Source of the DNA: an uncultured Bacilli bacterium
Lineage (GTDB): Bacteria > Bacillota_I > Bacilli_A > RF39 > UBA660
Assembly (NCBI GenBank): GCA_910587325.1
Contig: CAJUKB010000004.1
Coordinates: forward strand, 16,988 to 80,987
Reading direction: 5' to 3'
DNA length: 64,000 nt
Position 1 is the stretch's first letter. The number at the start of each line of letters is the position of its first letter. Under the pieces are notes generated by a model. The model was not told the DNA's origin and did no database searches. It saw nothing but the letters and a program-made list of their open reading frames with translations. This document shows, piece after piece, positions 12,635 to 56,820 of this stretch. Both the position numbers and the translations under genes were made by a program.

Positions 12635-12655
12635 ATAATTTTCTCCTTTTTAATA

Positions 12656-12686: not shown

Positions 12687-12805
12687 ATACAATCGAGTTC
12701 AATTTAGGGCTATGAATTCAAAAGAAAAATAACCTTTTTTAAATAAGAGTTATTTTTTCTAAATTATATGCTGTAAGATTTCTTTTAAGTATCATACTAT
12801 AAAAC

Positions 12806-14422: not shown

Positions 14423-14441
14423 TTTTATTCACTCCTTACTT

Positions 14442-15986: not shown

Positions 15987-15999
15987 TTTTAACTACTCC

Positions 16000-32227: not shown

Positions 32228-32268
32228 TGCACTGATACTATACTTGTCTCGATTGGCTTTTATTATTT

Positions 32269-32559: not shown

Positions 32560-32683
32560 TTTCTTTTCCTTCTTTCTTACTTCTCATATTATAATCTGTC
32601 CTTTTCTTTTTTGTCTAATTTATTGTAACCAATCCAATATGAAAATGTACTAATTTTTATTATGATAAAAGTGGTGATAAAAA

Positions 32684-39688: not shown

Positions 39689-40468
39689 TTAAACCTCCTC
39701 TGCAAACCCCTTCGATAACTTTTTAAATATGAAATACCCGATGACACAAAATAGAAGACAACCTCCTATTAAAACCGCTAGCGATATTATATCAGGCATT
39801 TGTTTATAAAAGAAGATATCTCGATAAGAATTTATAATCGTCCCCATCGGATTTAATTTAATTAAGGTAGCAATTGGTGTTCCTGCAAACATTTCAGGAG
39901 AATATAAAATGGGAGTTGCGTAAAATAGCATATTTACAACAAAGTTGATAATGTACTCTAAGTCTCTTATATAAATATCAATGGCACTTGTAATAAAAAC
40001 AATTCCTAAAGAAAATAAAAATTGAGCAAGAACAACTACAGGAAGTAATAGAATGTAAGGGCTAAAACCTATACCAGAGCAAATAAGAAAAATACCAATA
40101 ATTAAACAAGAAATTAAGAAATTAATCATTCCACTTGTTACTACCGAAATAGGTAGAATTTCTCTTGGAAAGTATACTTTTTTTATAATCCCCGCATTTC
40201 CTAAAACGGTTGTTGTTCCAAGGGCAATCGAATTTGTAAACCATGTCCAGGGAAGAATTCCAATAATAATAAATGTTACATAGTGTGGCTCTGTACTTTT
40301 TAAAATAAAGGGGAAAACAATTGCATAGACAAGTGTCATTAAAAGTGGGTTTACAAAAGACCATAAAATTCCTAAAAAGGAACCCTTGTATTTGCCACGA
40401 ATTTCTTTTTTCACGTTTGTTTTTAAAAGTTCTCGATAGTTATATAATTCTTTAATCATCTTAACCAC
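39689..40468 (-). CDS. ABC-2 type polysaccharide/teichoic-acid export permease (Wzm/TagG-like)
   Basis: 259 aa, 6 TM helices, ABC-2 signature region. Overlaps the upstream ATPase gene. Confidence 0.7.
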   Translation of the reverse strand: MVKMIKELYNYRELLKTNVKKEIRGKYKGSFLGILWSFVNPLLMTLVYAIVFPFILKSTEPHYVTFIIIGILPWTWFTNSIALGTTTVLGNAGIIKKVYFPREILPISVVTSGMINFLISCLIIGIFLICSGIGFSPYILLLPVVVLAQFLFSLGIVFITSAIDIYIRDLEYIINFVVNMLFYATPILYSPEMFAGTPIATLIKLNPMGTIINSYRDIFFYKQMPDIISLAVLIGGCLLFCVIGYFIFKKLSKGFAEEV

Positions 40469-41189
40469 ACACCTTCATGTATTCGTCAATCACGTTTTCA
40501 TTTCCATCCATTTTGATTTTTCCTTCATGAATCCATACAAAACGCGTACATAATTTTTTTATAGACTCTAAACTATGGCTTACGATTACAATTGTTTTGT
40601 TACTATTTTTTAGTTCTTCTAATTTAGAAAAACACTTTTCTTGAAAATGAGCATCTCCTACGGCTAGGATTTCGTCAATTAAAAGTATTTCTGCATCTAC
40701 ATTAATGGCAACAGAAAACGCAAGTCGCATGTACATTCCTGATGAATAAGTACGAATAGGACTATCAATAAATTCTTTAAGTTCTGAAAATTCGATAATA
40801 TCTTCTAAACGTTTGTCTATTTCTTGTTTCGTTAAGCCAAATATAGCAGCATTAAAGTAAATATTTTCACGACCTGTAAAATCTGGATGAAACCCTGCCC
40901 CTAATTCTAGTAAAGAGGTTAACTTTCCTTCTGTTGTTATTTTTCCTCTTGTAGGATAAATAATTTTCGTCATTAGTTTTAAAAGAGTTGATTTTCCACT
41001 ACCATTGACGCCAATTAAGGCTACTGTTTCTCCTTTTTTGATATCTAAAGAAACATTTTCTAATACCGTATGAACATCCGCTTTTTTCTTATTCCAAAAT
41101 ACAAGTCTTTCTTTTAATGTGCTTGGTTTGTCATAGTAAAGTTTAAAGTTTTTTGTTACATCTTTTACAACAATTGCATTTTTAGGCAT
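40461..41189 (-). CDS. ABC transporter ATP-binding protein (Wzt/TagH-like)
   Basis: 242 aa. Walker A GVNGSGKST, ABC signature LSSGMYMRLA, Walker B LLIDE. Confidence 0.8.
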   Translation of the reverse strand: MPKNAIVVKDVTKNFKLYYDKPSTLKERLVFWNKKKADVHTVLENVSLDIKKGETVALIGVNGSGKSTLLKLMTKIIYPTRGKITTEGKLTSLLELGAGFHPDFTGRENIYFNAAIFGLTKQEIDKRLEDIIEFSELKEFIDSPIRTYSSGMYMRLAFSVAINVDAEILLIDEILAVGDAHFQEKCFSKLEELKNSNKTIVIVSHSLESIKKLCTRFVWIHEGKIKMDGNENVIDEYMKVCG

Positions 41190-41238
41190 GTCCTTACCTC
41201 CTAACTCTTCTATATAAGAATACCATTAATTTTTTAAT

Positions 41239-42393
41239 TTACCAAATTTTTTTGTAACTCTCTACTACTAGTTTCCATGTATATTCTTTTTTTATTCTAT
41301 CTTTGGCAAGATTCTCATATTTTTTGATTGTTTTGTCATCAAATTTTTCTACTTTTTCAATCTGTCTTTTTAAGTCTCCTTTTTGTTTGCTGAAATAGAA
41401 AGAAGACATCATACCAACTTCTACATTGTAAATTGCATTAAATAAAATATTTAATTTTGTGCTTGCTAGTGCTTCTAAAAGAGAAGGATTTGTTCCTCCT
41501 GCACTATGTCCATGAATATAAGCATAAGCATTTCGTCTTATGTAAAGAAGCGTTGCATGATCGTAAACGGAACCAATAAATTTAATTCTTGCATCACTCG
41601 AAAAGCACGTTTTCTTTTCTAGTTCTTTATAAAACTTATTTTCTTCTACATTGGATACAATGACTAAATCCCTTTTAGTATCGCTACTCATGAACTCTTT
41701 TATCATAAGTTCATAGTTATTTTCTGGTACAAATCGCCCGACAATTAGATAATAGTTATTTTCACTTATTTGATATTTTTTATACAATTCTTTAACAATA
41801 TTTGTTTTACACTCTTTTTCATTTAAATAGGCCCCGTAAGGAATAAAATAAGATGGTTTATGAAACTTTTTATATTTTGTATCTATGTATTCTTTAATCG
41901 CTTTTGAATCACTTATTATTCCATCACTGTGCTTAACCATACAGTATTCACTTATTTTAAAACACTTTTTTATCCACCATGCCCATTTATCACGCATCCA
42001 TTCAAGTCCATCAGGATTTAAATAAATTTTGATTCCTTTCTTTTTTAATGGACGTACTAAAAAAGGATAAAACGGCCCCATACGACAACCCAGTACGTAA
42101 ACCATTGAATTTTCTAAATTATTTTTTTTAATGTATTTTTTCATTCGTTTTAATGCTACTATTGCATAGATAAACATGGTTACAAATCCAACTTTAGGGG
42201 AATAGACTTGCAAACAAGAAACCTGATCTTTTTCGATTATTTTTTTATTCTCTTTTTTATTGTGAGTCAGTTCTGGAACATGAAACTTGGTATTTTTATC
42301 ACAATAGTTTTCTATTAAATTGGTTACAAAGGTTTCCCAACCCCCGTAATTAGATTTGTATCCACGTGCTCCAATTATTATAATATTTTTCAT
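41239..42393 (-). CDS. GT4 glycosyltransferase with a DUF1972-type N-terminal domain
   Basis: IIIIGARGYKSNYGGWETFV N-terminus and a C-terminal GT4 region. I take the start at the Met preceded by RBS AAGAGGAAA (42393). The ORF track's upstream Met is at 42417. Confidence 0.6.
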   Translation of the reverse strand: MKNIIIIGARGYKSNYGGWETFVTNLIENYCDKNTKFHVPELTHNKKENKKIIEKDQVSCLQVYSPKVGFVTMFIYAIVALKRMKKYIKKNNLENSMVYVLGCRMGPFYPFLVRPLKKKGIKIYLNPDGLEWMRDKWAWWIKKCFKISEYCMVKHSDGIISDSKAIKEYIDTKYKKFHKPSYFIPYGAYLNEKECKTNIVKELYKKYQISENNYYLIVGRFVPENNYELMIKEFMSSDTKRDLVIVSNVEENKFYKELEKKTCFSSDARIKFIGSVYDHATLLYIRRNAYAYIHGHSAGGTNPSLLEALASTKLNILFNAIYNVEVGMMSSFYFSKQKGDLKRQIEKVEKFDDKTIKKYENLAKDRIKKEYTWKLVVESYKKIW

Positions 42394-42404
42394 AGTTTTC
42401 CTCT

Positions 42405-43328
42405 TTAATAATTCCATTTTATTTTATTAAAGCAATTTATACCCCCCCCCCGTTTGAATTTGTTATAGAGATTACGAATTTTACTAATGTATGTCCAACT
42501 TTTGCTATTTAATATTTGTTTTAAAGAATCATGAGATTTAGTCAATTCATTATTTAATTTTTTTATTATTGTTTCTTGTTTTTGATTTTGCATTTTCATA
42601 TTATTGAAATCTTTTTCTAGTGTCGTTATTTTTTCATTTAGTTCCTTTATGATAACTTCTTTGCTTTTATTATGTTCGTGGATAAAAAAGTAATCGTTGT
42701 TATACCATAAAACATTTATGAATTGTACTTTTTTGTATTTGTGTTTCCAAAGGGAGTACATAAAGGAAAGTTGATCTCTTCTACTGTATCGTTTTACCAT
42801 ATTCCACCAACAATTTTGTACTTTTTTAATTTTGCTATTATTAGTTTTAAATGCAAAAAAATTATTAGCAGTAAGTCCATAATGTTCGGGAAAATTTTCT
42901 TTTTTTAAAAATGTCATTTCTTCCTCAATAATCTTTTTATCGTCTTTTTTCCAATCAATACATACTATTGCCTCTTCATAAATACAATCTCTATCGGAAT
43001 GGATAAGAGAAAAAAAGTCGTAATTTTTAAGGTCACATTCTTTTTTAATAAACTCACTAACTGGTTTTCTTAATTCTATATTAGCGTCCATATAAATGGC
43101 CAAATCATAATTTTTAAAGATTTCTTCACAACCAAGAATTTTGATTTTTCTTTCTAATCTAATGAAATCTAAGAGTTCTGGATTATCTAAGGACATAATT
43201 TTCCAAGTTTTGCTTTTAATGTTTGGGTTATTTGTAAAACAATAATAATCTATTTCTTTATCTATATACTTTATTTCTTTTAAGGTATCATAATCTCCAG
43301 TTATTGCTGTATATACCATAGTTTTCAT
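42405..43328 (-). CDS. Putative glycosyltransferase-like protein (DUF616/TOD1-MUCI70-like) with a coiled-coil C-terminus
   Basis: 307 aa. N-terminal AITGDYD motif. The C-terminal Gly-Gly-Gly is encoded by the G10 tract. Confidence 0.4.
   Translation of the reverse strand: MKTMVYTAITGDYDTLKEIKYIDKEIDYYCFTNNPNIKSKTWKIMSLDNPELLDFIRLERKIKILGCEEIFKNYDLAIYMDANIELRKPVSEFIKKECDLKNYDFFSLIHSDRDCIYEEAIVCIDWKKDDKKIIEEEMTFLKKENFPEHYGLTANNFFAFKTNNSKIKKVQNCWWNMVKRYSRRDQLSFMYSLWKHKYKKVQFINVLWYNNDYFFIHEHNKSKEVIIKELNEKITTLEKDFNNMKMQNQKQETIIKKLNNELTKSHDSLKQILNSKSWTYISKIRNLYNKFKRGGGINCFNKIKWNY
42442..42451. repeat. C10/G10 homopolymeric tract inside the 3' end of CDS 42405-43328, followed on the minus strand by TATAAA
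   Basis: Encodes RGGGI 16 codons before the stop. On the minus strand G10-TATAAA lies 42-60 nt upstream of the ATG of 41239-42393. Confidence 0.9.
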
Positions 43329-43332
43329 ATTT

Positions 43333-44181
43333 TCACCTCTTAATCCATTTTTCTATTTCTAAACCAAGTAAATAAATATAGTAAAAAATTCTTAATATTA
43401 ATAGTTTGAAGATATTCATTTTATTTATATATTTTTCATAATAATATTGACTTTTTTTTAAAATTTTAAACTTTTCTATTCGATTAATATTTTTATCCAC
43501 ACAAGCACTTAAAGCGTGAATAACTGTCACATTGTTATCAACATAAGTCGCATATCCTTTTTCTTTTAATTTTTTTGCCATAATAATTTCTTCGTAATAT
43601 AAAAAGGTATTTTCATCAAAATAGCCGATATCTTCTAAAACCGTTTTCTTTATAATGAAGAAACATCCCTTTACTACATCTACTTTGGTTAAATCTTTTT
43701 TATATTCTTCATTTTTGTACGTTAATAAAGACAGTTCAAAACGTCTAAAAAATGGAATATTGGCTACAAGTTCTGATAGAAATGTGGGTAATTTCCAACC
43801 ACGAGAAACACCAGTTGGTTCTTTTATATTGGGAGCAATGACTGCTACGTTGTTTTTTTCTAAATTTTCAACTAAATTCTTTATTTCTTTTTCTGTTACT
43901 ATGATATCTGGATTGGAAATAATAATATTATCTACATCATGATTTTTTATTAAATATTGAATTCCTACATTATTTCCAGAAGCGTATCCTTTATTTTCTT
44001 TTGCTTCCACTATTTTAATTTTGTGATTTTCAAATTGTTTTAATTCTTTTAGTGAATTATCAGTGCTTTTATTATCTACTATAATAATAACATCTAGTAT
44101 TTTATAATTTTTGATTTCTTCTAACATTAATTTTGTATTTTCACTATCATTATAATTTAGTATAACTATTCCATTTTTCAT
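43333..44181 (-). CDS. GT2 glycosyltransferase
   Basis: 282 aa. GIVILNYNDSENT...VDNKSTDNS...NPD motifs. RBS AGAGGGTAA. Confidence 0.7.
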   Translation of the reverse strand: MKNGIVILNYNDSENTKLMLEEIKNYKILDVIIIVDNKSTDNSLKELKQFENHKIKIVEAKENKGYASGNNVGIQYLIKNHDVDNIIISNPDIIVTEKEIKNLVENLEKNNVAVIAPNIKEPTGVSRGWKLPTFLSELVANIPFFRRFELSLLTYKNEEYKKDLTKVDVVKGCFFIIKKTVLEDIGYFDENTFLYYEEIIMAKKLKEKGYATYVDNNVTVIHALSACVDKNINRIEKFKILKKSQYYYEKYINKMNIFKLLILRIFYYIYLLGLEIEKWIKR

Positions 44182-44334: not shown

Positions 44335-44888
44335 TGGCTCTAGATAATTTAGTGGGAATCTAAAATTAAAGATTTCTAAGTAAATAAAAGGGAAAATAGG
44401 TATTTTTTAGATTAATTTCAAAACACCTGTTTTTTTATGGAGAATACGCTTTATTTTTTTGCTTTTCTATCTTTTTTAGTTATTCCACTTATTTTTCCAT
44501 TCAATATGTACATTACCCTTAGTCTAAAAAATCAAAATTTTGATATCCAACTCCAACTCTTTTGATTACTTTTATTTTGTTGTTTAATCCTTCTGCAAAT
44601 CCATTACTAAGTCTTTCATCTATAAATGAATTTACTATTTAAGGTAACCAATTTTCTATTGTTTTATTTGCTTCTATCATTTCCTCCATTTCATAAATTT
44701 TTACTATTTCTGCCCATTCTCTTCATTCTATTTCTACATACTCGTAATTTGTTGTATATGATACATTAAAAAAAAGAGATAACTTTATTCGTTATCTCCT
44801 CACCTAATTTTCTAGTTATCATACAAAAAGTCCCCACTAAAATTTCTTGATGCTGATTTTTTTATCCCCACTAAATTATCTAGAGCCA
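44335..44888. mobile_element. ISL3-family derived non-autonomous (MITE-like) element of about 550 bp
   Basis: 22-bp perfect terminal inverted repeats TGGCTCTAGATAATTTAGTGGG at 44335-44356 and reverse-complemented at 44867-44888. GGCTCT is the typical ISL3 terminus. Flanking 8-bp near-identical direct repeats AAAAAATA/AAAACATA. An internal minus-strand remnant SNGFAEGLNNKIKVIKRVGVGYQNFDF matches an ISL3 transposase C-terminus. Confidence 0.55.
44767..44798 (-). terminator. Rho-independent terminator (GAGATAAC-loop-GTTATCTC plus T8), probably terminating the lic operon
   Basis: 8-bp GC-containing stem with a 7-nt loop, followed by 8 T on the minus strand, downstream of the BCCT gene stop (44988) and inside the ISL3 remnant. 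Confidence 0.55.
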
Positions 44889-44987
44889 AAAACATAGAAA
44901 CGTAGCGTAAAAAGGTGAGCGTTATCTAACTCTCGATAACACATAACTTATGCAAATATTCTTTTTACAGATTTTTCAATAAAGAGT

Positions 44988-46517
44988 TTATTCTTTTTTG
45001 TTGTTTTTAGTAGGTTCTTCTAAATACCGTTTAGCGTCTTTAATAAAACTAATCACAATCATAATTATCACTATTCCTATTGGAAAAGCCGCGACTATGC
45101 TCACAGATTGTAAATTATTCATAGAACTTTGTGAAAATACCAAAGCGATTGGTAATAAAATTAATAAGATGCACCATATTAATTGCATCATTCTATGCGG
45201 TTTTTCATCTTTAGCAAGTTTGTGATAACTATAGCATGATGCCGTATAAGCAATGGAATCGAAAGAAGTTGCGTAAAATGCAATCATTGTAATTAATAAT
45301 AATATTAAAATAAACGGAAAACATGGAATGGTTTTAATTATAGAAATAATAATATTATAAATATCTCCACCATTTTGATACATTGCCACAAAATCAAATT
45401 GCCCACTCATTTGAAGGCCTAAAGAATGATTTCCTAATATTATAAAACTAATAATTGTAGACCCTACACCAAAGATATATCCCCCAATAATCGTTTGTTT
45501 AACAGTTCTTCCTTTTGATATATTACCAATAAAAAAGGGAGCAGCAACACACCAAACCATCCAATAAGCCCAATAATAAATTGTCCAATTTTGTGGAAAA
45601 CTTGTTTCTCTTAAAGGATCTGTTGTCGTCGATAATCCTATAAAATTTTCTATCATTCGTCCTAATGAAGAGAAACCATTTTCAATAATAAATCGCCCTT
45701 GTCCTCCAAAAAATAAAACAAATAATAAAATACCAAAAAATAAATAAATACAAATTTTTGCAAGTAAACTCATTCCTTTAAATCCATGTAAAAGCGTATA
45801 CGTATATACAATACAAGTTATTAAAAGAATAATTATGGTAATTACTGTCCTGCTTATGGTTATATGAAATACTTCTCCAATAATTGCAGCCATTAAAGGA
45901 GTAGCAACGCTAAATGTTGTAGCAGTTCCAGCAAGTAATGCAAATACTGCTAGCAAATCTACTATTCTTCCTGGTAATTTATCTGTAAATTTTCCAAGTA
46001 AAGGCCTACACGCTTCTGAATATTTTTGTTTTTCTCTTTTTCTTACATGTAACATAAAGCCAAAAGCAATTGCAAGAACTAAATAAAAACTCCACGGAAT
46101 AAAACTCCAATGAAATATTGGAAATACGCTTGCCCAATCTTCCATATTTCCTAAATGCGCAATATGACTTTCTCCTGCATACATAATCCATTCCGAAAAT
46201 GAATAGAATAAGATGTCTGCCGCAAGTCCACACGTAAACATCATAGCCCCCCAAGTAAAGAAGGAATATTTTGGTTTTTCATTTTTTTTGCCTAATACAA
46301 TATTTCCATACTTCGAAAACGCAATAATTAAGGACAAAATAAATATCCCTAAACCCATTATCAAATAATATACACCAAAAGTATCCCCAAAAATAAATCT
46401 AATTTTACTTAAAACTAGATTAGATTCTGTAGGTAGAAAAATAAATAGGACGCATAGAGCAATAATTAAAACAAGTGGCATTAAAGTGATTAGCCAATCA
46501 ATTTTCTTTGTTTTCAT
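44988..46517 (-). CDS. BCCT-family (betaine/carnitine/choline) transporter, probable choline importer
   Basis: BCCT signature WTIYYWAYWMVWCVAAPFFIGNISKGRT, about 12 TM helices. Start taken at the internal Met MKTKKIDWL. The ORF track starts at 46565. Confidence 0.7.
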   Translation of the reverse strand: MKTKKIDWLITLMPLVLIIALCVLFIFLPTESNLVLSKIRFIFGDTFGVYYLIMGLGIFILSLIIAFSKYGNIVLGKKNEKPKYSFFTWGAMMFTCGLAADILFYSFSEWIMYAGESHIAHLGNMEDWASVFPIFHWSFIPWSFYLVLAIAFGFMLHVRKREKQKYSEACRPLLGKFTDKLPGRIVDLLAVFALLAGTATTFSVATPLMAAIIGEVFHITISRTVITIIILLITCIVYTYTLLHGFKGMSLLAKICIYLFFGILLFVLFFGGQGRFIIENGFSSLGRMIENFIGLSTTTDPLRETSFPQNWTIYYWAYWMVWCVAAPFFIGNISKGRTVKQTIIGGYIFGVGSTIISFIILGNHSLGLQMSGQFDFVAMYQNGGDIYNIIISIIKTIPCFPFILILLLITMIAFYATSFDSIAYTASCYSYHKLAKDEKPHRMMQLIWCILLILLPIALVFSQSSMNNLQSVSIVAAFPIGIVIIMIVISFIKDAKRYLEEPTKNNKKE

Positions 46518-47244
46518 TTTTTTCGCCTGCTTTCTTAAAATTAGCGTAACTGTTATCAATTGCAATTAATTCTTGATAATTATCTATTTCTACTATATCT
46601 TCCTTTTCTATTTCATAAACGTGTAAATCAAATTCTTCAGGATAACAAAACATTGCAATATTATCCCAATAAATGGTAGTATTGTTTTTATTTATGAACT
46701 CTTCTTCCACATATTTTTTTAATTTTTTTCCATCTTCTTTTGTCCATCTTGAAATGCTCCACAAACGGTATCCATCTTTTCCACCCTCAATACTACAATT
46801 TGTAATTTTTCCACAGTTATCAGTTTGCAAAAACCACTCATTTGTATATTCTTTGCACCACGAACAACTATATCCAGATTTTTCAAAGTATGGATTTAAT
46901 ATGCTTGGATTTTTAATTATTAAGTCGGCGTCTGTAATAATAATTTCTTCTAAAAATTCTCTAGCAACATACAAAGAAGAAATATTGTTGGTTTCTTCAT
47001 AATATTTATTTTCAATTAATTTTATATTCGGATAGTCTTCTAACAAAATATTAAATTTATCTTTTAGGTATCCAACAACAATATATATTTCTTGTATTCC
47101 ATTTTGGTATAAACCCTTTATAATAGTATCAATCATTCTTACGCCATTTACTCTTATTAATGGTTTTGGCGTTTCAATTGTAACAGGGTTTAATCTGCTT
47201 CCCTTGCCCGCTGCTAAAATAAGGGCTCTTTTTATTTTATTCAT
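46498..47244 (-). CDS. licC: CTP:phosphocholine cytidylyltransferase (LicC-like nucleotidyltransferase)
   Basis: 248 aa. ALILAAGKGSRL nucleotidyltransferase motif, in the same operon as a choline kinase and LicD. Confidence 0.65.
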   Translation of the reverse strand: MNKIKRALILAAGKGSRLNPVTIETPKPLIRVNGVRMIDTIIKGLYQNGIQEIYIVVGYLKDKFNILLEDYPNIKLIENKYYEETNNISSLYVAREFLEEIIITDADLIIKNPSILNPYFEKSGYSCSWCKEYTNEWFLQTDNCGKITNCSIEGGKDGYRLWSISRWTKEDGKKLKKYVEEEFINKNNTTIYWDNIAMFCYPEEFDLHVYEIEKEDIVEIDNYQELIAIDNSYANFKKAGEKNENKEN

Positions 47245-49024
47245 TTATTTCTTCCTCCAATTCTTTGGCAACTATTTTATAAAAATCTTTTGCATACCTA
47301 TATTGTTTTATAGAGTATTCTCCAAATTCTATACCTAAGTTTCTTTTGAATTCACACCAATTACTCCAGAGCAAACCGCAAGCCGAAATATAGGCATAGA
47401 TTTTTAGACGAGTTATTTTTTTACATTTGTTTTTGAAATAGATAGAAATTAAATTATCAATTTCTTCCTTATCATATAATGAATATATACAAAACATAGC
47501 AATATCAACATGTGGATCTTGCATACCTGCATATTCCCAGTCAATTAATTTTATTTCATTTTTTGTAATCAAAAAATTATCTGGTACTGCATCAATATGA
47601 GTCAAACTTCTACTTTCTACATTTTTTTCAATAAAAGGTTTTAATTTTCTTACATTTTTTTTAGTTGTTTCATAATCTTCATAAACAGAGGCGTTTCCAT
47701 TCCATAGCAACTCAAAATAATCGATTTGTTTAAAAATATCAAATTTATGTTCCACTTTTAATTTTAAATTATGAAAATCTCTTAGTTTTTTCATACATTT
47801 TTTTATGTCCTCTTGATTATGTGGATTGCATACTTTTGCTCCTTCTATAAATTTTGTAATTTTATAACCATTCTCAGGATTTATATAATAAATGTCATCA
47901 CAAATGTTTTGATTTTTTATTTTTAAGTAAGTTGCTGCTTCTTGTTTTCTATTTATCAGTTGGTCTGTTCCTTCTCCTGGAATACGCATAATGTATTTTT
48001 GATTTTGGCATTCAAATATAAAAGATTTATTGGTCATACCTTTTTTCAATATTTGTATATTTACAATTTCTTTCGTATCTACTTTAAAGACTTCTTTTAT
48101 AATTTCTATTGCATCATTATTTAAACTATTAGAATTAAAATCAAAATCTCTTAATTCTTCATAGGTATTTATTTCTATATAATCTTCATTATTAACAAGA
48201 TTCGGTTTAAAATATTTAGTATTCTCTTGTAATAAAATATCTTCCCAATATGAATTCTTGTATTTTTTCAAATTGTTACATTCTTCTAGGGTTTTTACAA
48301 AAAGTTTTTTATCTTTTTCGCTAATATAGGCAATTCCTATCATTTTATTTCCATATTCTTTTGTATTCACTTTTGTTAATTCAAATTTTTTGTTAATTCT
48401 TAGAATACTATCCTCATCTTTCTCATTATTTAGCATATACCAAGAATACAATTCAACAGTATGAAAGGGATTTTCCTTACAATAAATGTCACAAGGTATA
48501 ATGTAAGAGTTTCCTATATTCTTTTTTGCTAAGTTAAGGGAATACAAATTGTTTCTTTCACTATATTTTGGATTTATTATTAACTCAACATTATATTTGT
48601 CTATTAAGTATTCGTATTTTTCTTTCATAAAGCCTACTATAATTTGGATATTCGTAATGCCAACTTCTTGTAGTTGTTTTATAATACGTTCAATTAGAAC
48701 CTCATTTTTTACTTCTAAAAGTCCTTTTGGTATTTCTGTATTTATAGGAACCATTCGCATTCCGTATCCCGCTGCCAGAATAATGGCATTTCTAGTTTTT
48801 GAAGAATGGATTTCTTTTATCGCTTTTTCTGTTAATTCTTTATTATTTGTTAAATAGCCATATTCTATTAACTTTTTTAAACTTACATTTATTACCCCCA
48901 AAGATGTTTTGGTTATTTTTGATAGTTCTCTTTGAGTTAACTCCCTTTTATTATTAAAAATCGTTATTATAATATCATACATAATTTTGTTCATGAAAAT
49001 CAAATACTCTTTTCTTATGAACAT
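47237..49024 (-). CDS. Fusion protein: HTH, LicC-like nucleotidyltransferase and LicA-like choline kinase
   Basis: 595 aa. N-terminal HTH (RELTQRELSKITKTS), AIILAAGYGMRM nucleotidyltransferase motif, and a C-terminal choline/ethanolamine kinase motif LIDWEYAGMQDPHVDIAMF. Confidence 0.65.
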   Translation of the reverse strand: MFIRKEYLIFMNKIMYDIIITIFNNKRELTQRELSKITKTSLGVINVSLKKLIEYGYLTNNKELTEKAIKEIHSSKTRNAIILAAGYGMRMVPINTEIPKGLLEVKNEVLIERIIKQLQEVGITNIQIIVGFMKEKYEYLIDKYNVELIINPKYSERNNLYSLNLAKKNIGNSYIIPCDIYCKENPFHTVELYSWYMLNNEKDEDSILRINKKFELTKVNTKEYGNKMIGIAYISEKDKKLFVKTLEECNNLKKYKNSYWEDILLQENTKYFKPNLVNNEDYIEINTYEELRDFDFNSNSLNNDAIEIIKEVFKVDTKEIVNIQILKKGMTNKSFIFECQNQKYIMRIPGEGTDQLINRKQEAATYLKIKNQNICDDIYYINPENGYKITKFIEGAKVCNPHNQEDIKKCMKKLRDFHNLKLKVEHKFDIFKQIDYFELLWNGNASVYEDYETTKKNVRKLKPFIEKNVESRSLTHIDAVPDNFLITKNEIKLIDWEYAGMQDPHVDIAMFCIYSLYDKEEIDNLISIYFKNKCKKITRLKIYAYISACGLLWSNWCEFKRNLGIEFGEYSIKQYRYAKDFYKIVAKELEEEINE

Positions 49025-49119
49025 AATATCATATTATCTTTTAAATGGGAAGTAAAAAGCATATTTTTTTCTCTATATAAAATATTTTCCTTATGCTATA
49101 ATTTTAGTAGGTGATAGTA

Positions 49120-49929
49120 ATGAATAAAGCACAAAAACATCAATTAGAAATGGCTTTGGAAGTAGACCGTATCTGTAAGAAATACAATTTAAAGTATAAC
49201 ATTGATGGTGGTACTCTTCTTGGTGCTATTCGTCATAAAGGTTTTATTCCTTGGGATGATGATTTAGATATTGATATGCCAAGACATGATTATGAAAAGT
49301 TTTGTGAAGTAGCACAAAAAGAATTAGGAGACAAATATTTTTTACAAACTTGGGATACAGAACCTAATTATGCTATGACTTTTGCAAAAATAAGAGAAAA
49401 TAATACTATTTATTTAGAAAACGTTGCAAAAAATGTGGATGTTCATCAAGGAATATGGATAGATATATTTCCTCATGATGTGATTACAGATAATGTATTT
49501 TTACAAAAAATATTGGTAAAAAAGGCCGTGCTTTATCGTTTGATGTTGCAAATAAAAAAAGGATATATTATAGAAACACCTTCGTTTAGCAAAAGAGTTA
49601 TTTTAGCCTTCTTAAAGTTTCTTGCTATCTTCACTTCCGCAAAATCTTTAAAGAAAAAGTTACAAAAAATGCAATTGCGTTATCAAAATACGAAAACAAA
49701 CAGTCTAGTAGATTATTCTAGTGTGCTTTTTAATAAAATGATTTACGATAAAAAGGTAATGAATGAATATGCTCCTGTTTCTTTTGAAGGAAAAACACTA
49801 ATGGGGCTTAAAGATTATGATACTTATCTTACCTATCTTTATGGTGATTATATGACGCCTCCTCCAGAGGGACAAAGAGAAAATCGGCATGGTATAATTC
49901 AAATTGACTTTAATGCAAAGCAAAAGTAA
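49120..49929 (+). CDS. licD: LicD-family phosphocholine transferase
   Basis: DGGTLLGAIRHKGFIPWDDDLDIDM and IDIFP motifs. Start taken at the ATG with RBS AGGTGA. The ORF track starts at the GTG at 49111. Confidence 0.75.
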   Translation: MNKAQKHQLEMALEVDRICKKYNLKYNIDGGTLLGAIRHKGFIPWDDDLDIDMPRHDYEKFCEVAQKELGDKYFLQTWDTEPNYAMTFAKIRENNTIYLENVAKNVDVHQGIWIDIFPHDVITDNVFLQKILVKKAVLYRLMLQIKKGYIIETPSFSKRVILAFLKFLAIFTSAKSLKKKLQKMQLRYQNTKTNSLVDYSSVLFNKMIYDKKVMNEYAPVSFEGKTLMGLKDYDTYLTYLYGDYMTPPPEGQRENRHGIIQIDFNAKQK

Positions 49930-50017: not shown

Positions 50018-52195
50018 TCAATTTTTAAACACATCTAAAATCACTTTTTTGGTATTTTCACTACTATACTCTTCACTTTTTTTACGTGCATTTTTGATAA
50101 GTTTATTTTTTTTCGTTGTTTTTAGATTTAAAAACGTATCCATTTTATTTGCTAATTCTTTATCATCACTCGGATTAAACGTTAAACTATTTTCACCATC
50201 TATTAGATAGTCACTTGGACCATATTTGTTGCTACCAATTACGAATGTTTCACAGGCCATGGCTTCTAGTCCCGTTAGCCCCAATGACTCACTTTTCATT
50301 CTAGTCGGATAAATAAAAGCGTCTATGGCATTATAAATACTTACAAGTTCTTCTTGGCTTACTAATGGTTTTCTTATGATCACTTTTTCTAATTTATATT
50401 TCTGTATCCACTTTTTTAGTTGAGGTTCTTCACTTCCACTACCAACGAGCAAGAATTTCACATCTTCTTTTTTGTTTATTTTACGGAATTCATGAATGGC
50501 TTTTACATATACATCATATCCTTTGTCTTTTTCAATTCGTGCAATAAAGGCAAAATATGTATATTTACTATCTAATTCTACATTTTTTAATGCCGTCTTT
50601 TTATTCATTTTTTTAAATTTTGCTAAATCGACCCCACCCGATGGGAAAATTACTATTTTTTCTTTTGCAACCTTATAATTTTTAATCAATACTTTTTTAA
50701 AATAGTTAGAGGGAGAAATTACAATATCCGATCCTTTTAGGAAAAGTCTAGTGAGTCCTAAATACCCTTTGTCCACATTTGTATCTGCTACAATATCATT
50801 TCCATGGGTATTTAACACTAGTTTGGTATTTTTTGCGCATAAGGCTGGAATAAATACTCCTGCTGTTGTATGGGAAACAAAATGAACATAGATATAATCG
50901 TAATTATTAAAAACTGCTTTTAATAAAGAGAGACCACACATTTTTATATAAGAAAATAATTTTTTTATTTTTCCTGTTGTTTTATACATTACAACTAAAT
51001 CTATTGTATGATTTGCTTCTACTAATAAATCATATGTATTTTTCACAAATATTCCATAATGAGGATATTCTTTACTTGGATACATATTGCTTACAAATAA
51101 GATATCCTTTTTCATTTTACCATTATCATTTTTTGAAATTAAGAACAATAAACTTAGAAAAGGAATTAAATATGGGTTTATTAAAACATTTCCCAAATTG
51201 GATAAAATAAGTAGAAAGACAAATATAATTGTATAGTTCTTTTTTAAATGACTAAATTTAAATACATACGCAAAGTAGAAAAAATAAAAGAATAGCCCTA
51301 AGATTCCAATGCTATAAAATAAATCAAAAATATCACTTTCTACATAATGAATGGAATTTAGTTTTTCGTATCCTATACCTAATACTTTTTCCATACCACT
51401 ACTTTCTTTAAAACTTTTTTGAACATTTTTTAATAAATCGATTCTTTCATTAATGAAAATCTCTTTCGTACTATATGGTTCTAAAGATGTTTTATCTTTT
51501 GTTAAATCCATCTTAGGTATATAAACGGCAAGCCCTATACATAATGTTAAAACAAGAAGAAGAGATTTTAGTTGGTTCTTTTTTATTGTTTTTGCTATTT
51601 TTCTTAGGTTACCAAAAAGGTAAAAGAGAACTAACATAAGAATACTAATAAAGAAAATTTCATTGTTTATGAATAGAGTTAAAAGGCAAAATGCTATTAA
51701 AAATAATCCTTTTAATAAATAACTATTGCTTTCTATTATATATAATAGTGATACACCAAAAAGAAGAAGAAATAGATTTAAGATTTCATTATTTATGGTA
51801 AAGCCAAATAAAGAGAAAATGAGTAATACTATAATATATAGTAAAGATAAAATAGTAATTGTTTTTTTAGTCATAGTTTCTTTTTGATATTGAGTAAAGA
51901 ATAGAATGAAGGTTGGTAAAGAAAAAATAGTAAGTAGATTGGTAATTTCAAACCAAGGGTTTAGATGGTTTGTAAATACATGGAGAAGATAAATAAAAAA
52001 ATATATTCCTAAAAGGGCAAAAATTTTTTTATGTTTCGTATTTTTTACTAAATAATAAACACTATACAATAGAAATAATCCTTTTAAAGTCAAAGTTATT
52101 AAAAAGGTAGTAGTGTTTATCAAAGATATACCATCTAAAAAAGGTAATAAAAATATAAGTAGGTATAGTCCATCTATTTTTTTTAATTTTGTCAT
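50018..52195 (-). CDS. Fusion of an O-antigen ligase/polymerase-like polytopic membrane domain with a C-terminal GT4 glycosyltransferase
   Basis: 725 aa. About 10 N-terminal TM helices, then a GT4 domain (VGSGSEEPQL...ESLGLTGLEAMACETFVIGS). Confidence 0.55.
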   Translation of the reverse strand: MTKLKKIDGLYLLIFLLPFLDGISLINTTTFLITLTLKGLFLLYSVYYLVKNTKHKKIFALLGIYFFIYLLHVFTNHLNPWFEITNLLTIFSLPTFILFFTQYQKETMTKKTITILSLLYIIVLLIFSLFGFTINNEILNLFLLLFGVSLLYIIESNSYLLKGLFLIAFCLLTLFINNEIFFISILMLVLFYLFGNLRKIAKTIKKNQLKSLLLVLTLCIGLAVYIPKMDLTKDKTSLEPYSTKEIFINERIDLLKNVQKSFKESSGMEKVLGIGYEKLNSIHYVESDIFDLFYSIGILGLFFYFFYFAYVFKFSHLKKNYTIIFVFLLILSNLGNVLINPYLIPFLSLLFLISKNDNGKMKKDILFVSNMYPSKEYPHYGIFVKNTYDLLVEANHTIDLVVMYKTTGKIKKLFSYIKMCGLSLLKAVFNNYDYIYVHFVSHTTAGVFIPALCAKNTKLVLNTHGNDIVADTNVDKGYLGLTRLFLKGSDIVISPSNYFKKVLIKNYKVAKEKIVIFPSGGVDLAKFKKMNKKTALKNVELDSKYTYFAFIARIEKDKGYDVYVKAIHEFRKINKKEDVKFLLVGSGSEEPQLKKWIQKYKLEKVIIRKPLVSQEELVSIYNAIDAFIYPTRMKSESLGLTGLEAMACETFVIGSNKYGPSDYLIDGENSLTFNPSDDKELANKMDTFLNLKTTKKNKLIKNARKKSEEYSSENTKKVILDVFKN

Positions 52196-52338: not shown

Positions 52339-53424
52339 TTATTTCTTTTTCTTCCCTTTTTTTGTTTCTTTCTTATTTTTCTTCTTTTCATTATTATGTT
52401 TAAATAAAATATCTGTTTTTAAGACAATGAATAGGAAGATAATCATTAATCCTACATAAATGAAAATAACGTAGTAGGTATCTCCTAAAGCGTAAAAGAT
52501 GGATAACGCTGCAAATAAAATATCAATGGCATAAATAATAAGCAAGGAAGTACGTGTAGAAAACTCCATTTTTAATAATTGGTGATGGATATGACCTTTA
52601 TCGGGAGTACTAAATGGATTTTGTTTTTTTAAAACTCTTCTAAAAATCGAGAATACAACATCAATAATTGGAGTGGCTAGTATAATTAAAGGGATGATTA
52701 AAGAAGTAAATGTTGCTGTTTTATATCCAAGTAATGTTGTCACCGCAATAATAAATCCTAAGAAATTGCTTCCAGTATCTCCAAGATAAATTCTTGCGGG
52801 TGGAAAATTATAAACCAAGAATCCTAAAATAGAACCTAACATAATTAAAGCAAGTGTTGTATCAAGGCCTTGTTGTGCATTCATAATAAAAGCAATAATC
52901 GAAATGGTAAGAAAGTAAATGGAACTGATTCCCGAGCATAAACCATCTAAACCATCCGAAAGATTAATAGCATTGATAATAGAAACGATGAGTACTATTG
53001 TAATCATATAATTCCAAGGATAGGAAAATGTAAAATTCATTCCTAGGACACTTATATAATCTAACGTAATTTGTCCATAAAACACAACAATCGACGCCGC
53101 AATAACTTGGACAAGTAACTGATATCTTGTTCTTAAAGGATTAATATCATCCATCATTCCCATGAAAATAAGTAAAAAGCTACCCATTAAAATAGATAAC
53201 ATTTGTACACTACTTCTTGCATACAACATATATCCTAACATAAAGGAGAAGAATATAGCTAGTCCACCAAGCGTTGGCATAGGGACTTTATTCAAGCGCC
53301 TTTCATTCGGATAATCAAGTGCTTTTACATGTCTTGCAATTTTTTCTACAATAGGCGTTACAATTAAACTGCATAAAAAAGTAACAAAGACGATTACAAA
53401 TACGTCATGACCATTTACATACAT
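52339..53424 (-). CDS. tagO: Undecaprenyl-phosphate N-acetylhexosamine-1-phosphate transferase (TagO/WecA/MraY family)
   Basis: NAINLSDGLDGL hallmark, DDxxP-like MGMMDDINPL, and polytopic topology. I prefer the start at the internal ATG (MYVNGHD) preceded by GGAAG. The ORF track begins at a TTG at 53460. Confidence 0.8.
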   Translation of the reverse strand: MYVNGHDVFVIVFVTFLCSLIVTPIVEKIARHVKALDYPNERRLNKVPMPTLGGLAIFFSFMLGYMLYARSSVQMLSILMGSFLLIFMGMMDDINPLRTRYQLLVQVIAASIVVFYGQITLDYISVLGMNFTFSYPWNYMITIVLIVSIINAINLSDGLDGLCSGISSIYFLTISIIAFIMNAQQGLDTTLALIMLGSILGFLVYNFPPARIYLGDTGSNFLGFIIAVTTLLGYKTATFTSLIIPLIILATPIIDVVFSIFRRVLKKQNPFSTPDKGHIHHQLLKMEFSTRTSLLIIYAIDILFAALSIFYALGDTYYVIFIYVGLMIIFLFIVLKTDILFKHNNEKKKNKKETKKGKKKK

Positions 53425-53484
53425 AATTTCACTTCCATCTTTATTATAACGTAATACCAAAAAAAAATGAAGAAAAATGCATAC

Positions 53485-54897
53485 TCACTTTTTTCTTCTT
53501 TTTTCATCTTCCCAAAAATCAAAATTATCAAATTTATCTAATTTTTCTTTTAAGGAAGTGTCTTGGGTTTCTTTTGTTTCTTTCTCTGTATTTTGTTCTA
53601 TTTTTATTTCTTGCACAAGTTCTTCTTTTTCTAGTTTTTTAACATCCGCTTTTGAATTTCTATTTATTTTTTTCTTATGTTTGTTCTTTTTCTTTAATAG
53701 ACATAAAATCAATAAGAAGGCAAATACTAAACCAACTCCAAAAGCAATACAAATATACATATAAGTATTTAAATCTTTAGTTAAACTTTCCACTTCCTCT
53801 TGATTCCATACTTGGAAAGTTCCTTCTTCTGTATCATAACTATAATAATCGTATTTTCCTGTTTCAATGTTCATACCATAGCAAATGACAAAACGACTAT
53901 TTTCACTTAAACGATATATAGGAACTTCTACTTCGTTAATGCTTATTGTTCCATTAGTATAATTTTTAAGTTCGTTAGGAAAATCCGTCAAGTATAGAGT
54001 CAAAGCATTCGCATTTAATTCGTTATAAATAGTGTAAGTATTATTCTCTTCATTGTAGATAGCTAGTATCACTTTGCCTGTTGTATCCTTAAGTCCCACT
54101 AAAGTAAATCCAGTTGTTTCACTATAAAAAGCTGGAATGGTAAATCCATTTATTTCTATTGTTTTTTCTTCATACATATTGAGCTGTGGTAAACTTTTGC
54201 CATTTTTAATAATCGTGTAAGATTTTTCTCCTATCTTGACTTCAATTGGATTCGTATCTTCTACGTTCACATTGATAACATATGTTTTCGTAGCTCCACT
54301 TTCTGCTGTTACCACTACATTAAAGGTATTGATACCTTCTGATACTTCTACTTCTCCTGTTCCTGAAACACTTGCATGTGATTCATTTGCTTTGGCGGCG
54401 ATTTTAACAGAATTGACAGTAGATGGAACTGTTACAGAGTATTCTAAGGTATCTTTGTTGAATGATGGAGTAAGTTCATATCCTTCAATAGATAAAGAGG
54501 CTAGATTTGCATCCGTTGCTTTTTCTCTTACAGGAACCACTGTTACTCTTTTAGAAGCAGATACGTTTGTGGTTGCTCCATCTTTACTAGTAATATCTCC
54601 AGTAGCAGTAAAGGAAATCATTCCTAAACTCGTAGCTTTACATGTCACAGTTAGTGTTTTAGTTGTATTATTTCCGTTACTTGTAGAATCTGCAAAGCTT
54701 TGGGTACACCCACTTGTGGAACCGGCAGAAACAATTTTTACATTCCAAGCTGCCGTTCCTTTTAATGTTAATGTTGCTTTTACAGTACTTCCTAATTCTA
54801 CGCTTGTTGGAGCGCTTAAAGAATAAGTTGCTGCTGCATGCACCATATAGGGGCACAAACTAAACAAACATAACAAACGAATTAACTTTCTTTTCAT
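53485..54897 (-). CDS. Secreted, membrane-anchored surface protein with a cadherin-like beta-sandwich domain
   Basis: 470 aa. Signal peptide, an ANLASLSIEGYELTPSFNKDTLEYSVTVPSTVNSVKIAAKA region typical of the clostridial cadherin-like domain, a C-terminal TM helix and a charged K/E-rich tail. Confidence 0.5.
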   Translation of the reverse strand: MKRKLIRLLCLFSLCPYMVHAAATYSLSAPTSVELGSTVKATLTLKGTAAWNVKIVSAGSTSGCTQSFADSTSNGNNTTKTLTVTCKATSLGMISFTATGDITSKDGATTNVSASKRVTVVPVREKATDANLASLSIEGYELTPSFNKDTLEYSVTVPSTVNSVKIAAKANESHASVSGTGEVEVSEGINTFNVVVTAESGATKTYVINVNVEDTNPIEVKIGEKSYTIIKNGKSLPQLNMYEEKTIEINGFTIPAFYSETTGFTLVGLKDTTGKVILAIYNEENNTYTIYNELNANALTLYLTDFPNELKNYTNGTISINEVEVPIYRLSENSRFVICYGMNIETGKYDYYSYDTEEGTFQVWNQEEVESLTKDLNTYMYICIAFGVGLVFAFLLILCLLKKKNKHKKKINRNSKADVKKLEKEELVQEIKIEQNTEKETKETQDTSLKEKLDKFDNFDFWEDEKRRKK

Positions 54898-54911
54898 TTC
54901 ATCCCTCTATT

Positions 54912-56666: not shown

Positions 56667-56820
56667 AGCTTTCCCTCCTTTTTCTAATACTATTTTAACA
56701 TTTTACATTCTTTTTTTAAAGATTTCGAAGTCTAGATTTGTAAGCATAGTGTCAAGTAAGTGATTATTGTAAATGATAAGCATTTTGGGGTATAATTATA
56801 AAATACGAGAGGATTTGAAT

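Follow-up and report, generated by a model that had tools for sequence, protein, structure and literature searches.

A predicted lic-type phosphocholine module with a BCCT importer and a trifunctional fusion protein in an uncultured Bacilli bacterium

Surface phosphocholine is a ligand of C-reactive protein, of natural anti-PC antibodies and of the PAF receptor. To our knowledge, work on bacterial phosphocholine has dealt almost exclusively with respiratory pathogens that have a LicB-type pathway; 26 species are named in a survey from 2023 (PMC10434233). Here we ask whether a locus of an uncultured Bacilli bacterium, situated in a stretch of 64,000 nucleotides (the window), would import choline and place phosphocholine on a wall polymer. 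A preliminary description had proposed this function, and its choline interpretation held up in every sequence-level check that it had suggested. We estimate at roughly 0.7 the probability that the locus serves phosphocholine decoration of the lic type and belongs to a wall-polysaccharide cluster with export by an ABC transporter; the presence of phosphocholine on the wall polymer is inferred.

Locus layout and distribution of the cassette

The locus comprises three genes on the minus strand and one on the plus strand. The first gene of the minus strand encodes a trifunctional fusion of a winged helix-turn-helix (wHTH), a LicC-like nucleotidyltransferase and a LicA-like choline kinase (ORF 47237-49024). 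It most likely starts at ATG 48994, which is M11 of the long ORF (MNKIM...) and matches the start of all homologues, giving a gene at 47237-48994 of 585 aa. It is followed by a stand-alone LicC orthologue, here called NT2 (46498-47244, minus strand, 248 aa; Pfam NTP_transferase, 8.4e-13, and NTP_transf_3, 6.5e-11), and by a BCCT transporter (ORF 44988-46565, minus strand; Pfam PF02028, 5.5e-119), whose gene spans 44988-46517 from ATG 46517 and encodes 509 aa. The divergently transcribed fourth gene encodes a LicD-family phosphotransferase (ORF 49111-49929, plus strand; PF04991 over the full model, 7e-45), with the gene at 49120-49929 (269 aa, from ATG 49120). All four ORFs of the preliminary description were recovered with exact boundaries, and the start codons of fusion, BCCT and LicD were revised as given here. 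The domains that it had assigned (BCCT, LicC, the HTH-LicC-LicA fusion and LicD) agree with both Pfam and the best PDB relatives, and the Pfam families that it had proposed to search for are present in the window ORFs.

The three genes of the minus strand run into one another, with overlaps of 8 nt and 20 nt, and therefore form one operon. A promoter-like site (TTCCCA-17-TG-TATTAT; 49023-49051, minus strand) was assigned to this operon by its position, in a consensus scan that overall gave no enrichment over shuffled sequences. The same type of scan places a terminator-like hairpin at 44919-44942 (minus strand), 46 nt past the BCCT stop codon. Directly downstream of the operon lies an internally deleted ISL3-family element (44336-44887, not assigned to a strand) with perfect terminal inverted repeats of 21 bp (chance expectation 0) and a remnant of the C-terminal part of the transposase (PF01610, 1e-9).

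Identical copies of the fusion protein are encoded on 24 or more public contigs, where the gene order is unchanged. The colinear cassette (wHTH-nucleotidyltransferase-kinase fusion, LicC, BCCT) is present in no fewer than 574 species genomes, Faecalibacterium, Dorea and Granulicatella among them; its carriers include hundreds of gut and oral species, and a Treponemataceae MAG has the same cassette at 54% identity. The BCCT importer and the fusion, presented in the preliminary description as distinctive, are indeed there; they are shared, though, by a very widespread cassette rather than being peculiar to this genome. The locus is thus real but not rare, a variant of the pneumococcal lic pathway, and the window holds an ordinary member of the cassette family. 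We found no paper that characterizes the cassette, and its annotations are generic (PGAP ‘phosphotransferase’ or ‘NTP transferase domain-containing protein’). Of 80 loci, only about 20 have a LicD gene at a distance of up to 10 kb; the cassette is therefore not always serving a neighboring LicD, which counts against the decoration reading.

A conserved inverted repeat in the operon leader

Comparison among loci revealed a conserved inverted repeat in the leader of the lic operon (48988-49023, minus strand), with arm A, TGTTCATAAGAAAA, at 49023-49010 and arm B, TTTTC-ATGAACA, at 48999-48988. The family consensus, located at the 5′ end of the cassette transcripts, reads TGTTCACGAAAA ... GT(T/A)C-ATGAAC-A. 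In the window, arm A is degenerate relative to this consensus, and arm B runs across the first two codons of the fusion, ATG and Asn2. In 55 of 75 loci, a GTTCA stands upstream of the ATG at a distance of precisely 28 or 29 nt (background 0.02 per 25 nt), and motif 8-mers occur in 33 of the 75 upstream regions versus 0.3-0.5 in shuffles. Where NT2-BCCT or BCCT form an operon apart from the fusion, that operon has a motif copy of its own; all three wHTH-less loci lack the motif. Additional matches to the position weight matrix inside genes mostly look like chance, and such matches are credible only upstream of NT2 or BCCT operons.

The repeat may be an operator to which the fused wHTH binds, or else a hairpin in the RNA. 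It is possible, if on balance unlikely, that it acts as a 5′-terminal hairpin that stabilizes the mRNA or occludes the start codon independently of the wHTH. In 36 of 36 leaders, the predicted fold pairs (U)GUUCA with UGAAC(A), at a mean ΔG of -4.9 versus -2.3 for shuffles (window leader, -8.1 kcal/mol); the arm spacing varies between 13 and 24 nt in NT2-first operons, and the loci with a GTG start pair perfectly (GUUCAC/GUGAAC). Against an RNA element, the arms are invariant across phyla, which suggests sequence-specific recognition rather than structure alone, and arm A directly adjoins the -10 box in two loci, the one in the window and L080, so that the transcript may miss part of the arm. 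A search of Rfam at gathering thresholds gave no match in the window, nor at the leader element of six related loci. Position 8 of arm A showed no consistent compensation with position -1, and the core arms never vary; since both arms are sequence-invariant, covariation cannot tell a DNA operator from an RNA hairpin.

Predicted choline uptake and activation

The BCCT transporter shows the features of choline-type members: the BCCT fold, a box of Trp and Tyr residues in TM8 and, at the position of BetP 153, an acidic residue. This residue, Asp101 (within CGLAADILFY), aligns with Gly101 of DddT and G153 of BetP, and it is invariant in all 65 cassette BCCTs; the aromatic box is kept and WTIYYWAYWMVW is conserved. 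According to two secondary sources, the G153D exchange at this TM3 hinge position turns BetP choline-specific (PMC6400524, PMC3578728). The Gly of DddT at the same position binds the substrate carboxylate (PMC13270143). Asp101 favors a carboxylate-free substrate, and we predict from these residues that the transporter takes up choline. Counting against choline, the closest solved relative is DddT, an importer of DMSP (2.8e-82), and characterized choline BCCTs are only distantly related (about 2e-47). The score against TIGR00842 (390.8) is slightly below the cutoff of 407.55.

Pfam divides the fusion into HTH_24 (aa 11-58; 4.1e-6, 26.7 bits versus a cutoff of 21.9), NTP_transf_3 (aa 80-181; 3.5e-10) and Choline_kinase (aa 324-520; 2.5e-19). 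In long-ORF numbering, we delimit the wHTH to aa 11-58, the LicC-like domain (NT1) to aa 79-291 and the LicA-like kinase to aa 316-578. The wHTH alone gave no meaningful match in a PDB sequence search. The best solved relative of the kinase domain is LicA of Streptococcus pneumoniae (4R77, 1.4e-30). Absence of choline-kinase residues had been named in the preliminary description as an argument that would overturn it. Instead, the LicA residues T29, D176, N181, D194, E196, Y197, W251, W254 and Y268 are invariant in all 79 kinase family members including that of the window, which thus retains the Brenner motif HxDxxxxN, the aromatic choline box (Y197, W251, W254, Y268), T29 and D176 (residue roles and choline-kinase motif from PMC4364537). 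The family departs from the published motif at three positions, N201Q, W205V and E213Y, a point against the decoration reading.

NT2 is most similar, among solved structures, to S. pneumoniae LicC (1JYK, 2.3e-33). LicC enzymes are recognized by GxG(T/S)Rx(4-8)PK, the metal ligands D107 and E216 and a choline pocket of D105, W136, Y190, W191 and D192 (PMC6697681). The nucleotide, Mg and choline-binding parts are all found in NT2: the window protein has GxGxR, K28, D105, D107, W136, Y190, W191, D192, E216 and D218, and so do no fewer than 60 of the 62 family members. By these residues, NT2 is almost certainly a CTP:phosphocholine cytidylyltransferase that makes CDP-choline.

NT1 also has LicC as its best solved relative (1JYK, 3.1e-26) and retains the nucleotide- and metal-binding part of LicC (GxGxR; K28 and D107 in 80/80, E216 in 78/80; LicC numbering) but not the choline pocket. 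Throughout the family, the head-group pocket is remodeled (D105P and D192E in 80/80, W136V/L/I, and also D218N in 74/80), and NT1 has an invariant aromatic block of its own (F187/Y193/W195/Y196). The need for two LicC paralogues is unaccounted for, and we counted this against the decoration reading.

A sensory role of NT1, in which CTP, phosphocholine or CDP-choline binding would set the activity of the wHTH while NT2 alone makes CDP-choline, seems doubtful to us. NT1 directly adjoins the wHTH, its choline pocket is remodeled whereas that of NT2 is canonical, an operator-like repeat is conserved, and NadR and BirA offer a precedent of enzyme-repressors. It nevertheless keeps the catalytic Lys and Arg as well as both metal ligands, and some cassettes have no NT2, with NT1 as sole nucleotidyltransferase (loci L053 and L076). 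In addition, recombinant LicCA of Treponema denticola, a LicC-LicA fusion, reportedly had both activities (Kent et al. 2004), with a nucleotidyltransferase that may be of another type than NT1.

The altered pocket could also mean that the cassette handles a non-choline onium compound, or two head groups, with NT1 for a second phospho-alcohol (phosphoethanolamine or a smaller analogue) and NT2 for phosphocholine; we regard this as improbable. The intact core next to D105P, W136V/L/I, D192E and D218N would fit such a role, as would the Glu at position 192 of the AEP-specific PntC (PMC6697681), the second kinase and third nucleotidyltransferase type carried by some loci, and DMSP import by the closest solved BCCT. 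The window, on the other hand, has a single kinase with an intact choline box and no Ppm gene among its ORFs of at least 150 aa. BCCTs carry quaternary ammonium or sulfonium compounds, a kinase would find no hydroxyl on DMSP, and Asp101 speaks for a carboxylate-free substrate. Moreover, the NT1-only cassettes suggest that NT1 is able to serve the same pathway, and its aromatic block could rebuild a cation-pi box.

LicD, the wall-polysaccharide cluster and known systems

In LicD, the stretch GGTLLGAIRH...WDDDLDID can be aligned to the catalytic part of FKRP (6KAJ), where WDYDVDLG stands opposite WDDDLDID; the acidic D-x-D and the WD-D-D motif are both present. We predict that LicD is a CDP-choline:glycan phosphocholine transferase. 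The preliminary description had placed the locus next to a glycan cluster; it actually lies inside, and polysaccharide genes flank LicD on both sides. On one side are a protein that joins a GT4 to an O-antigen-ligase-like membrane domain (50018-52195, minus strand; Pfam, NCBIfam) and a WecA/TagO-type priming phosphotransferase (52339-53460, minus strand; PF00953, with TIGR02380 at 150.8 bits, below its cutoff). On the other side are an exporter of ABC-2 permease and ATPase (39689-41189, minus strand; ABC2_membrane, ABC_tran) and, within 39689-44181 (minus strand; Pfam, NCBIfam), a Cps2T-like rhamnosyltransferase (458 bits versus a cutoff of 500), a TOD1-like protein and a GT2. A LytR-CpsA-Psr ligase with a PASTA domain (56773-58872, plus strand; Pfam LytR_cpsA_psr, 1.6e-42) would join the glycopolymer to peptidoglycan. 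With priming enzyme, ABC-2 permease and ATPase, and LCP ligase, the region has the components of an ABC-dependent wall glycopolymer cluster (Rgp/WTA-like). The window ORFs of at least 150 aa include no TarI, TarJ, TagD or Ppm, no EamA/DMT (LicB-type) choline permease and no protein with choline-binding repeats (CW_binding_1), the last of which counts against decoration; no other CDP-alcohol pathway is encoded within the window.

It is very unlikely that CDP-choline flows into a membrane lipid instead, be it phosphatidylcholine as in T. denticola, where LicCA feeds its synthesis (cited in PMC7368946), or a choline phosphoglycolipid, the product of the LicD-family enzyme Mf1 in Mycoplasma fermentans. 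For this reading, the diacylglycerol cholinephosphotransferase Mf1 is the sole NCBIfam match of LicD (4.8e-20), the nearest genome is labeled ‘uncultured Tenericutes’ and choline-binding proteins are lacking from the window. Against it, the match is weak (72.7 bits versus a cutoff of 225, hence no equivalog), LicD sits between the priming/GT4 genes and those of the glycan glycosyltransferases and ABC exporter, the window has no CDP-alcohol phosphatidyltransferase, and the same genes belong to polysaccharide clusters elsewhere. On the Lacticaseibacillus paracasei plasmid pE1-2, a set of LicD, fusion, NT2 and BCCT closes an EPS/rfbACBD cluster, and the CPS locus of Streptococcus anginosus J4206 has an indel of licD, licC, choline transporter and choline kinase (PMC5203781).

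In the decoration pathway that we propose, choline would be imported by the BCCT transporter and phosphorylated by the kinase domain of the trifunctional protein, and CDP-choline would be made by the LicC-type cytidylyltransferase, almost certainly NT2 and possibly NT1 too. On the cytoplasmic side, LicD would then move phosphocholine from CDP-choline to one of the sugars in the lipid-linked polysaccharide, after which the ABC-2 transporter would export the decorated polymer and the LCP enzyme ligate it to peptidoglycan. The inverted repeat at the transcript start probably controls the uptake and activation operon, the likeliest factor being the fused wHTH, as in NadR and BirA. Conserved active-site residues point to the steps up to CDP-choline, gene context to transfer, export and ligation, and comparative genomics only to the control step.

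If the BCCT cassette truly feeds LicD enzymes, decoration would be far commoner among commensals of the gut and mouth than published work suggests, and it could travel between polysaccharide loci on plasmids, beside IS elements. The leader element and the HTH-enzyme fusion would offer a handle on how decoration is coupled to choline supply. Tentatively, and with less than even confidence, we suggest that the fusion is a NadR-like enzyme-repressor binding the TGTTCACGAAAA/TGAACA repeat and coupling the level of choline or CDP-choline to the expression of uptake and activation genes, that NT1 has a role distinct from canonical LicC (sensor or second substrate), and that the cassette, together with LicD, marks a large unrecognized set of phosphocholine-displaying gut and oral commensals (Faecalibacterium, Dorea, Fusicatenibacter, Lachnospira).

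The proposed chemistry (import, kinase, cytidylyltransferase, glycan transfer) is that of the Lic-1 system of S. pneumoniae and Haemophilus influenzae (LicB, LicA, LicC, LicD). The importer of Lic-1, however, is LicB of the DMT family rather than a BCCT, and its polymer is flipped by TacF whereas that of the window would be exported by an ABC transporter. In the window, moreover, the kinase shares its chain with a wHTH and with a second, remodeled LicC-like domain, there are two LicC paralogues with a single LicD, and the leader carries a conserved inverted repeat. LicCA of T. denticola is alike in architecture, a single chain in which the LicC part precedes LicA, but its sink is a lipid, via a choline phosphotransferase, while the neighbor in the window is LicD in a glycan cluster. 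In S. anginosus J4206 (CPS) and on L. paracasei pE1-2 (EPS), known at annotation level only, the same gene set stands in a capsule or EPS locus beside IS elements. BetP G153D, BetT and DddT share the BCCT fold and aromatic box with the window transporter, which has Asp at the BetP-153 position where wild-type DddT has Gly. NadR and BirA are enzyme-repressors. NadR has an N-terminal HTH, then a nucleotidyltransferase and then a kinase, the order also seen in the fusion, which is moreover linked to a transporter gene and preceded by a promoter with a conserved operator-like site; NadR and BirA have no sequence relationship to the fusion, and the likeness would be one of working logic only.

Gene organization of the lic locus and its surroundings

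The preliminary description placed a lic locus of four open reading frames at 44988-49929, and we found all four there with the domains it had named: a BCCT choline-transporter-type gene (PF02028, 5.5e-119), a free LicC-type NTP-transferase of 248 aa (NT2), a 595-aa HTH-LicC-LicA fusion and a divergent LicD (PF04991, 7e-45). The fusion comprises HTH_24 (aa 11-58), NTP_transf_3 (aa 80-181; NT1) and Choline_kinase/APH (aa 324-529) domains. Among solved structures, its kinase domain is nearest to pneumococcal LicA (4R77, 1.4e-30), while NT1 and NT2 are both nearest to pneumococcal LicC (1JYK; 3.1e-26 versus 2.3e-33). Homologues and public gene calls move the start codons of the fusion, BCCT and LicD genes to 48994 (-), 46517 (-) and 49120 (+), giving proteins of 585, 509 and 269 aa, respectively. 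The three minus-strand genes are joined by overlaps of 8 nt and 20 nt and followed by a terminator-like hairpin at 44942-44919 (-). Therefore, they form one operon, divergent from licD. Directly 3' of the BCCT gene lies an internally deleted ISL3-family element of 552 bp (44336-44887), whose 21-bp terminal inverted repeats are perfect and which retains a C-terminal transposase remnant.

The locus does not adjoin a glycan cluster, as had been proposed, but lies within a wall-glycopolymer cluster, with glycan genes on both sides. Upstream are a WecA/TagO-type priming enzyme and, adjoining licD, a 725-aa protein (50018-52195 (-)) in which an O-antigen-ligase-like polytopic membrane domain is fused to a C-terminal GT4. 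Downstream are a GT2, a TOD1-like protein, a Cps2T-like rhamnosyltransferase (458 bits, under the cutoff of 500) and an ABC-2 permease with its ATPase, as well as additional glycosyltransferases and acyltransferases. At 56.8-58.9 kb is the gene for a PASTA-domain LCP ligase. The organism has a wall, because sortase, LCP and PASTA genes are present. The window ORFs of at least 150 aa include no TarI/TarJ, TagD, Ppm/PntC or other CDP-alcohol pathway gene, no LicB-type permease and no choline-binding protein.

This ABC-dependent glycan cluster (about 34-53 kb) is divided by IS fragments (rve/HTH_21, DDE_Tnp_1; 31748-33568) from a second one with a Wzx-type flippase (about 19.8-31.2 kb). Beside a GtrA-GT2 fusion, a series of large polytopic membrane proteins (YfhO-like, DUF6020, DUF2142, DUF6056; 10020-18782 (-)) is reminiscent of an extracytoplasmic system for glycan side-chain decoration. 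Between the priming glycosyltransferase and the LCP ligase lie two surface-protein genes (53485-56666 (-)). One product has a cadherin-like domain, a TM segment and a Lys-rich C-terminal tail, its homologue at another locus (L004) giving a weak cohesin match, and the other carries a dockerin type I repeat; they may be a cohesin-dockerin pair outside a cellulolytic setting. The window has a G+C content of about 27%, and among genomes of the species collection the closest is a MAG named 'uncultured Tenericutes bacterium' (96-97% identity over LicD and over fusion residues 1-339).

Active sites of the encoded proteins

For the kinase, residue roles follow the published LicA structure (PMC4364537). 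Invariant in the window and in 79/79 relatives are Thr29 of the P-loop, Asp176 and Asn181 of the Brenner motif, Asp194, Glu196 and the complete aromatic choline box (Tyr197, Trp251, Trp254, Tyr268). Since the catalytic and box residues are kept, the objection that the domain might lack choline-kinase residues does not hold. Three choline-kinase motif positions depart family-wide (N201Q, W205V and E213Y), the last exchanging a rim carboxylate for a further aromatic residue.

With the LicC numbering of Rice et al. (PMC6697681), at least 60 of 62 NT2 members keep GxGxR, Lys28, Asp105, Asp107, Trp136, Tyr190, Trp191, Asp192, Glu216 and Asp218. NT1 keeps the nucleotide/metal core (Lys28 80/80, Asp107 80/80, Glu216 78/80) and has a changed pocket, in which Pro105 and Glu192 are invariant, position 136 is Val/Leu/Ile and position 218 is Asn. 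NT2 is thus predicted to be a canonical CTP:phosphocholine cytidylyltransferase, and NT1, judged by its residues, looks catalytically competent with a remodelled head-group pocket. An invariant, NT1-specific aromatic block (F187/Y193/W195/Y196) might rebuild the cation-pi box. Given the kept core, we consider it unlikely that NT1 is a sensor and not an enzyme; that the remodelled pocket serves a second head group is more doubtful still.

The nearest solved relative of the BCCT protein is the DMSP importer DddT (2.8e-82), with a choline transporter behind (1.7e-47); the cassette BCCT is far closer to marine DddT than to any characterised choline transporter. Wild-type DddT binds the carboxylate of DMSP through the Gly101 backbone (PMC13270143). 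In the window protein this position is Asp (in CGLAADILFY), as in 65/65 cassette-linked BCCTs, so that the protein is naturally in the G101D state engineered in DddT structures. LicD shares GG(T/S)LLGA-RH...WD-D-D with the catalytic region of FKRP.

Distribution of the cassette and its leader repeat

At E <= 1e-10, database relatives of the fusion protein number at least 8,000, and the 120 best-scoring matches listed (an identical cluster set aside) share 52-66% identity and its architecture. In a scan of one genome per species it is present in at least 574 genomes, including Faecalibacterium prausnitzii ATCC 27768, Fusicatenibacter, Dorea, Streptococcus porci, Granulicatella, Anaerococcus, Parvimonas, Solobacterium, Coriobacteriales, Succiniclasticum and a Treponemataceae MAG. 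Among the best 80 loci, about 60 have the colinear order [wHTH-NT1-kinase], NT2, BCCT, identities are 46-60% for NT2 and 52-75% for BCCT, and only about 20 have LicD within 10 kb. Elsewhere NT2 forms the fourth domain of a fusion of 821-832 aa (wHTH-NT1-kinase-NT2; P0027, P0015, P0019, P0025 and others), and a few cassettes have no NT2 (L053, L076). One homologue (P0021, 960 aa) contains a second wHTH-NTase-kinase-like unit; another (P0002, 726 aa) has NT1 duplicated internally, which may be an assembly artefact. At seven loci (L012, L014, L025, L039, L055, L068, L080) a third NTase type, closer to NT1 (35-40% identity), replaces NT2, and an extra choline-kinase-like gene occurs at L020, L025, L039, L042 and L047, a hint that two head groups may have parallel pathways.

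Annotated parallels exist. On the L. paracasei plasmid pE1-2 (L087), LicD, a 'phosphotransferase', an 'NTP transferase domain-containing protein' and a 'BCCT family transporter' end an EPS/rfbACBD cluster and are followed by IS5, IS6 and IS30; IS elements thus border the module there too. The L. eligens megaplasmid carries the cassette with LicD not nearby. The CPS locus of S. anginosus J4206 has a strain-specific indel with licD, licC and genes for a choline transporter and a choline kinase (PMC5203781). Only LicB-type loci, in 26 species, were considered when ChoP pathways were surveyed in 2023 (PMC10434233), and our literature searches found no paper characterising this BCCT cassette.

At the 5' end of cassette transcripts from several phyla (L007-L088) we observed a conserved inverted repeat, TGTTCACGAAAA ... 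(GT[TA]C)ATGAACA, at 48988-49023 (-) in the window. The TGTTCACGAAAA 8-mers precede the fusion gene in 33 of 75 non-redundant loci (0.3-0.5 in shuffles), and in 55/75 wHTH-bearing loci GTTCA begins at exactly -28 or -29 relative to the start codon (background 0.02 per 25-nt window), 0-11 nt after a -10-like box and before the Shine-Dalgarno; the two annotated loci carry the element as well. The partner arm, GT(T/A)C-ATG-AAC-A, overlaps the start codon, and GTTCATGAAC is perfectly palindromic. The second codon reads AAC at 59 loci and AAT at 11, independent of genomic G+C. In the window, arm A (TGTTCATAAGAAAA, 49023-49010 (-)) is degenerate and abuts a TG-TATTAT box, and arm B (TTTTC-ATGAACA, 48999-48988 (-)) has a perfect core. 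Separate NT2-BCCT or BCCT operons have a copy of their own ahead of the SD, in the form of a true inverted repeat; examples are L046, L081, L055 and L043, the last with GTTCACGAAAT-N13-TTTTCGTGAAC.

The element is absent from all three loci with a wHTH-less fusion. The simplest reading, still tentative (probability roughly 0.45), is a site for autoregulation by the fused wHTH, a logic it would share with NadR and BirA. As RNA, the arms pair in 36/36 leaders (mean dG -4.9 kcal/mol versus -2.3 in shuffles; -8.1 kcal/mol in the window), and at gathering thresholds no Rfam family matches the window or the element at six related loci. Because both arms are sequence-invariant across loci, covariation is uninformative on DNA operator versus RNA hairpin; we rate a role at the RNA level as possible but less likely than autoregulation, and some other function takes the remaining probability. 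The strongest motif match in the window (TTGTTCACGAAATA, 38903-38914 (+), PWM 16.6) lies 58 nt upstream of a 626-aa GT2 gene (36965-38845 (-)), inside the preceding GT2 gene at its 3' end, and may be either fortuitous or a second promoter under regulation.

Proposed pathway and comparison with known lic systems

In the best-supported model, BCCT would import choline, the kinase domain of the fusion would form phosphocholine, and NT2, perhaps also NT1, would convert it to CDP-choline. LicD would then place phosphocholine on a lipid-linked wall polysaccharide in the cytoplasm, and the polymer would leave via the ABC-2 transporter and be joined to peptidoglycan by the LCP enzyme. The first three steps draw on conserved residues, the last two on gene context together with the parallels on the plasmid and in the CPS locus. 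Conserved active sites and gene context thus favour the original reading of choline uptake and phosphocholine transfer, with a polymer as predicted acceptor. Against the model stand the lack of choline-binding proteins in the window, the inconstant linkage of LicD to the cassette and the unaccounted-for second LicC paralogue. A lipid instead of wall polysaccharide as sink of CDP-choline, to which only a weak Mf1 match of LicD and a T. denticola precedent point, is improbable.

The locus is an ordinary member of a very common, uncharacterised lic pathway variant. More broadly, many gut commensals may decorate themselves with phosphocholine, under enzyme-repressor control, and this prospect is what would make the locus worth experimental follow-up. 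The variant differs from the known lic pathway in its BCCT transporter, its HTH-enzyme fusion, its two LicC paralogues and its conserved leader repeat.
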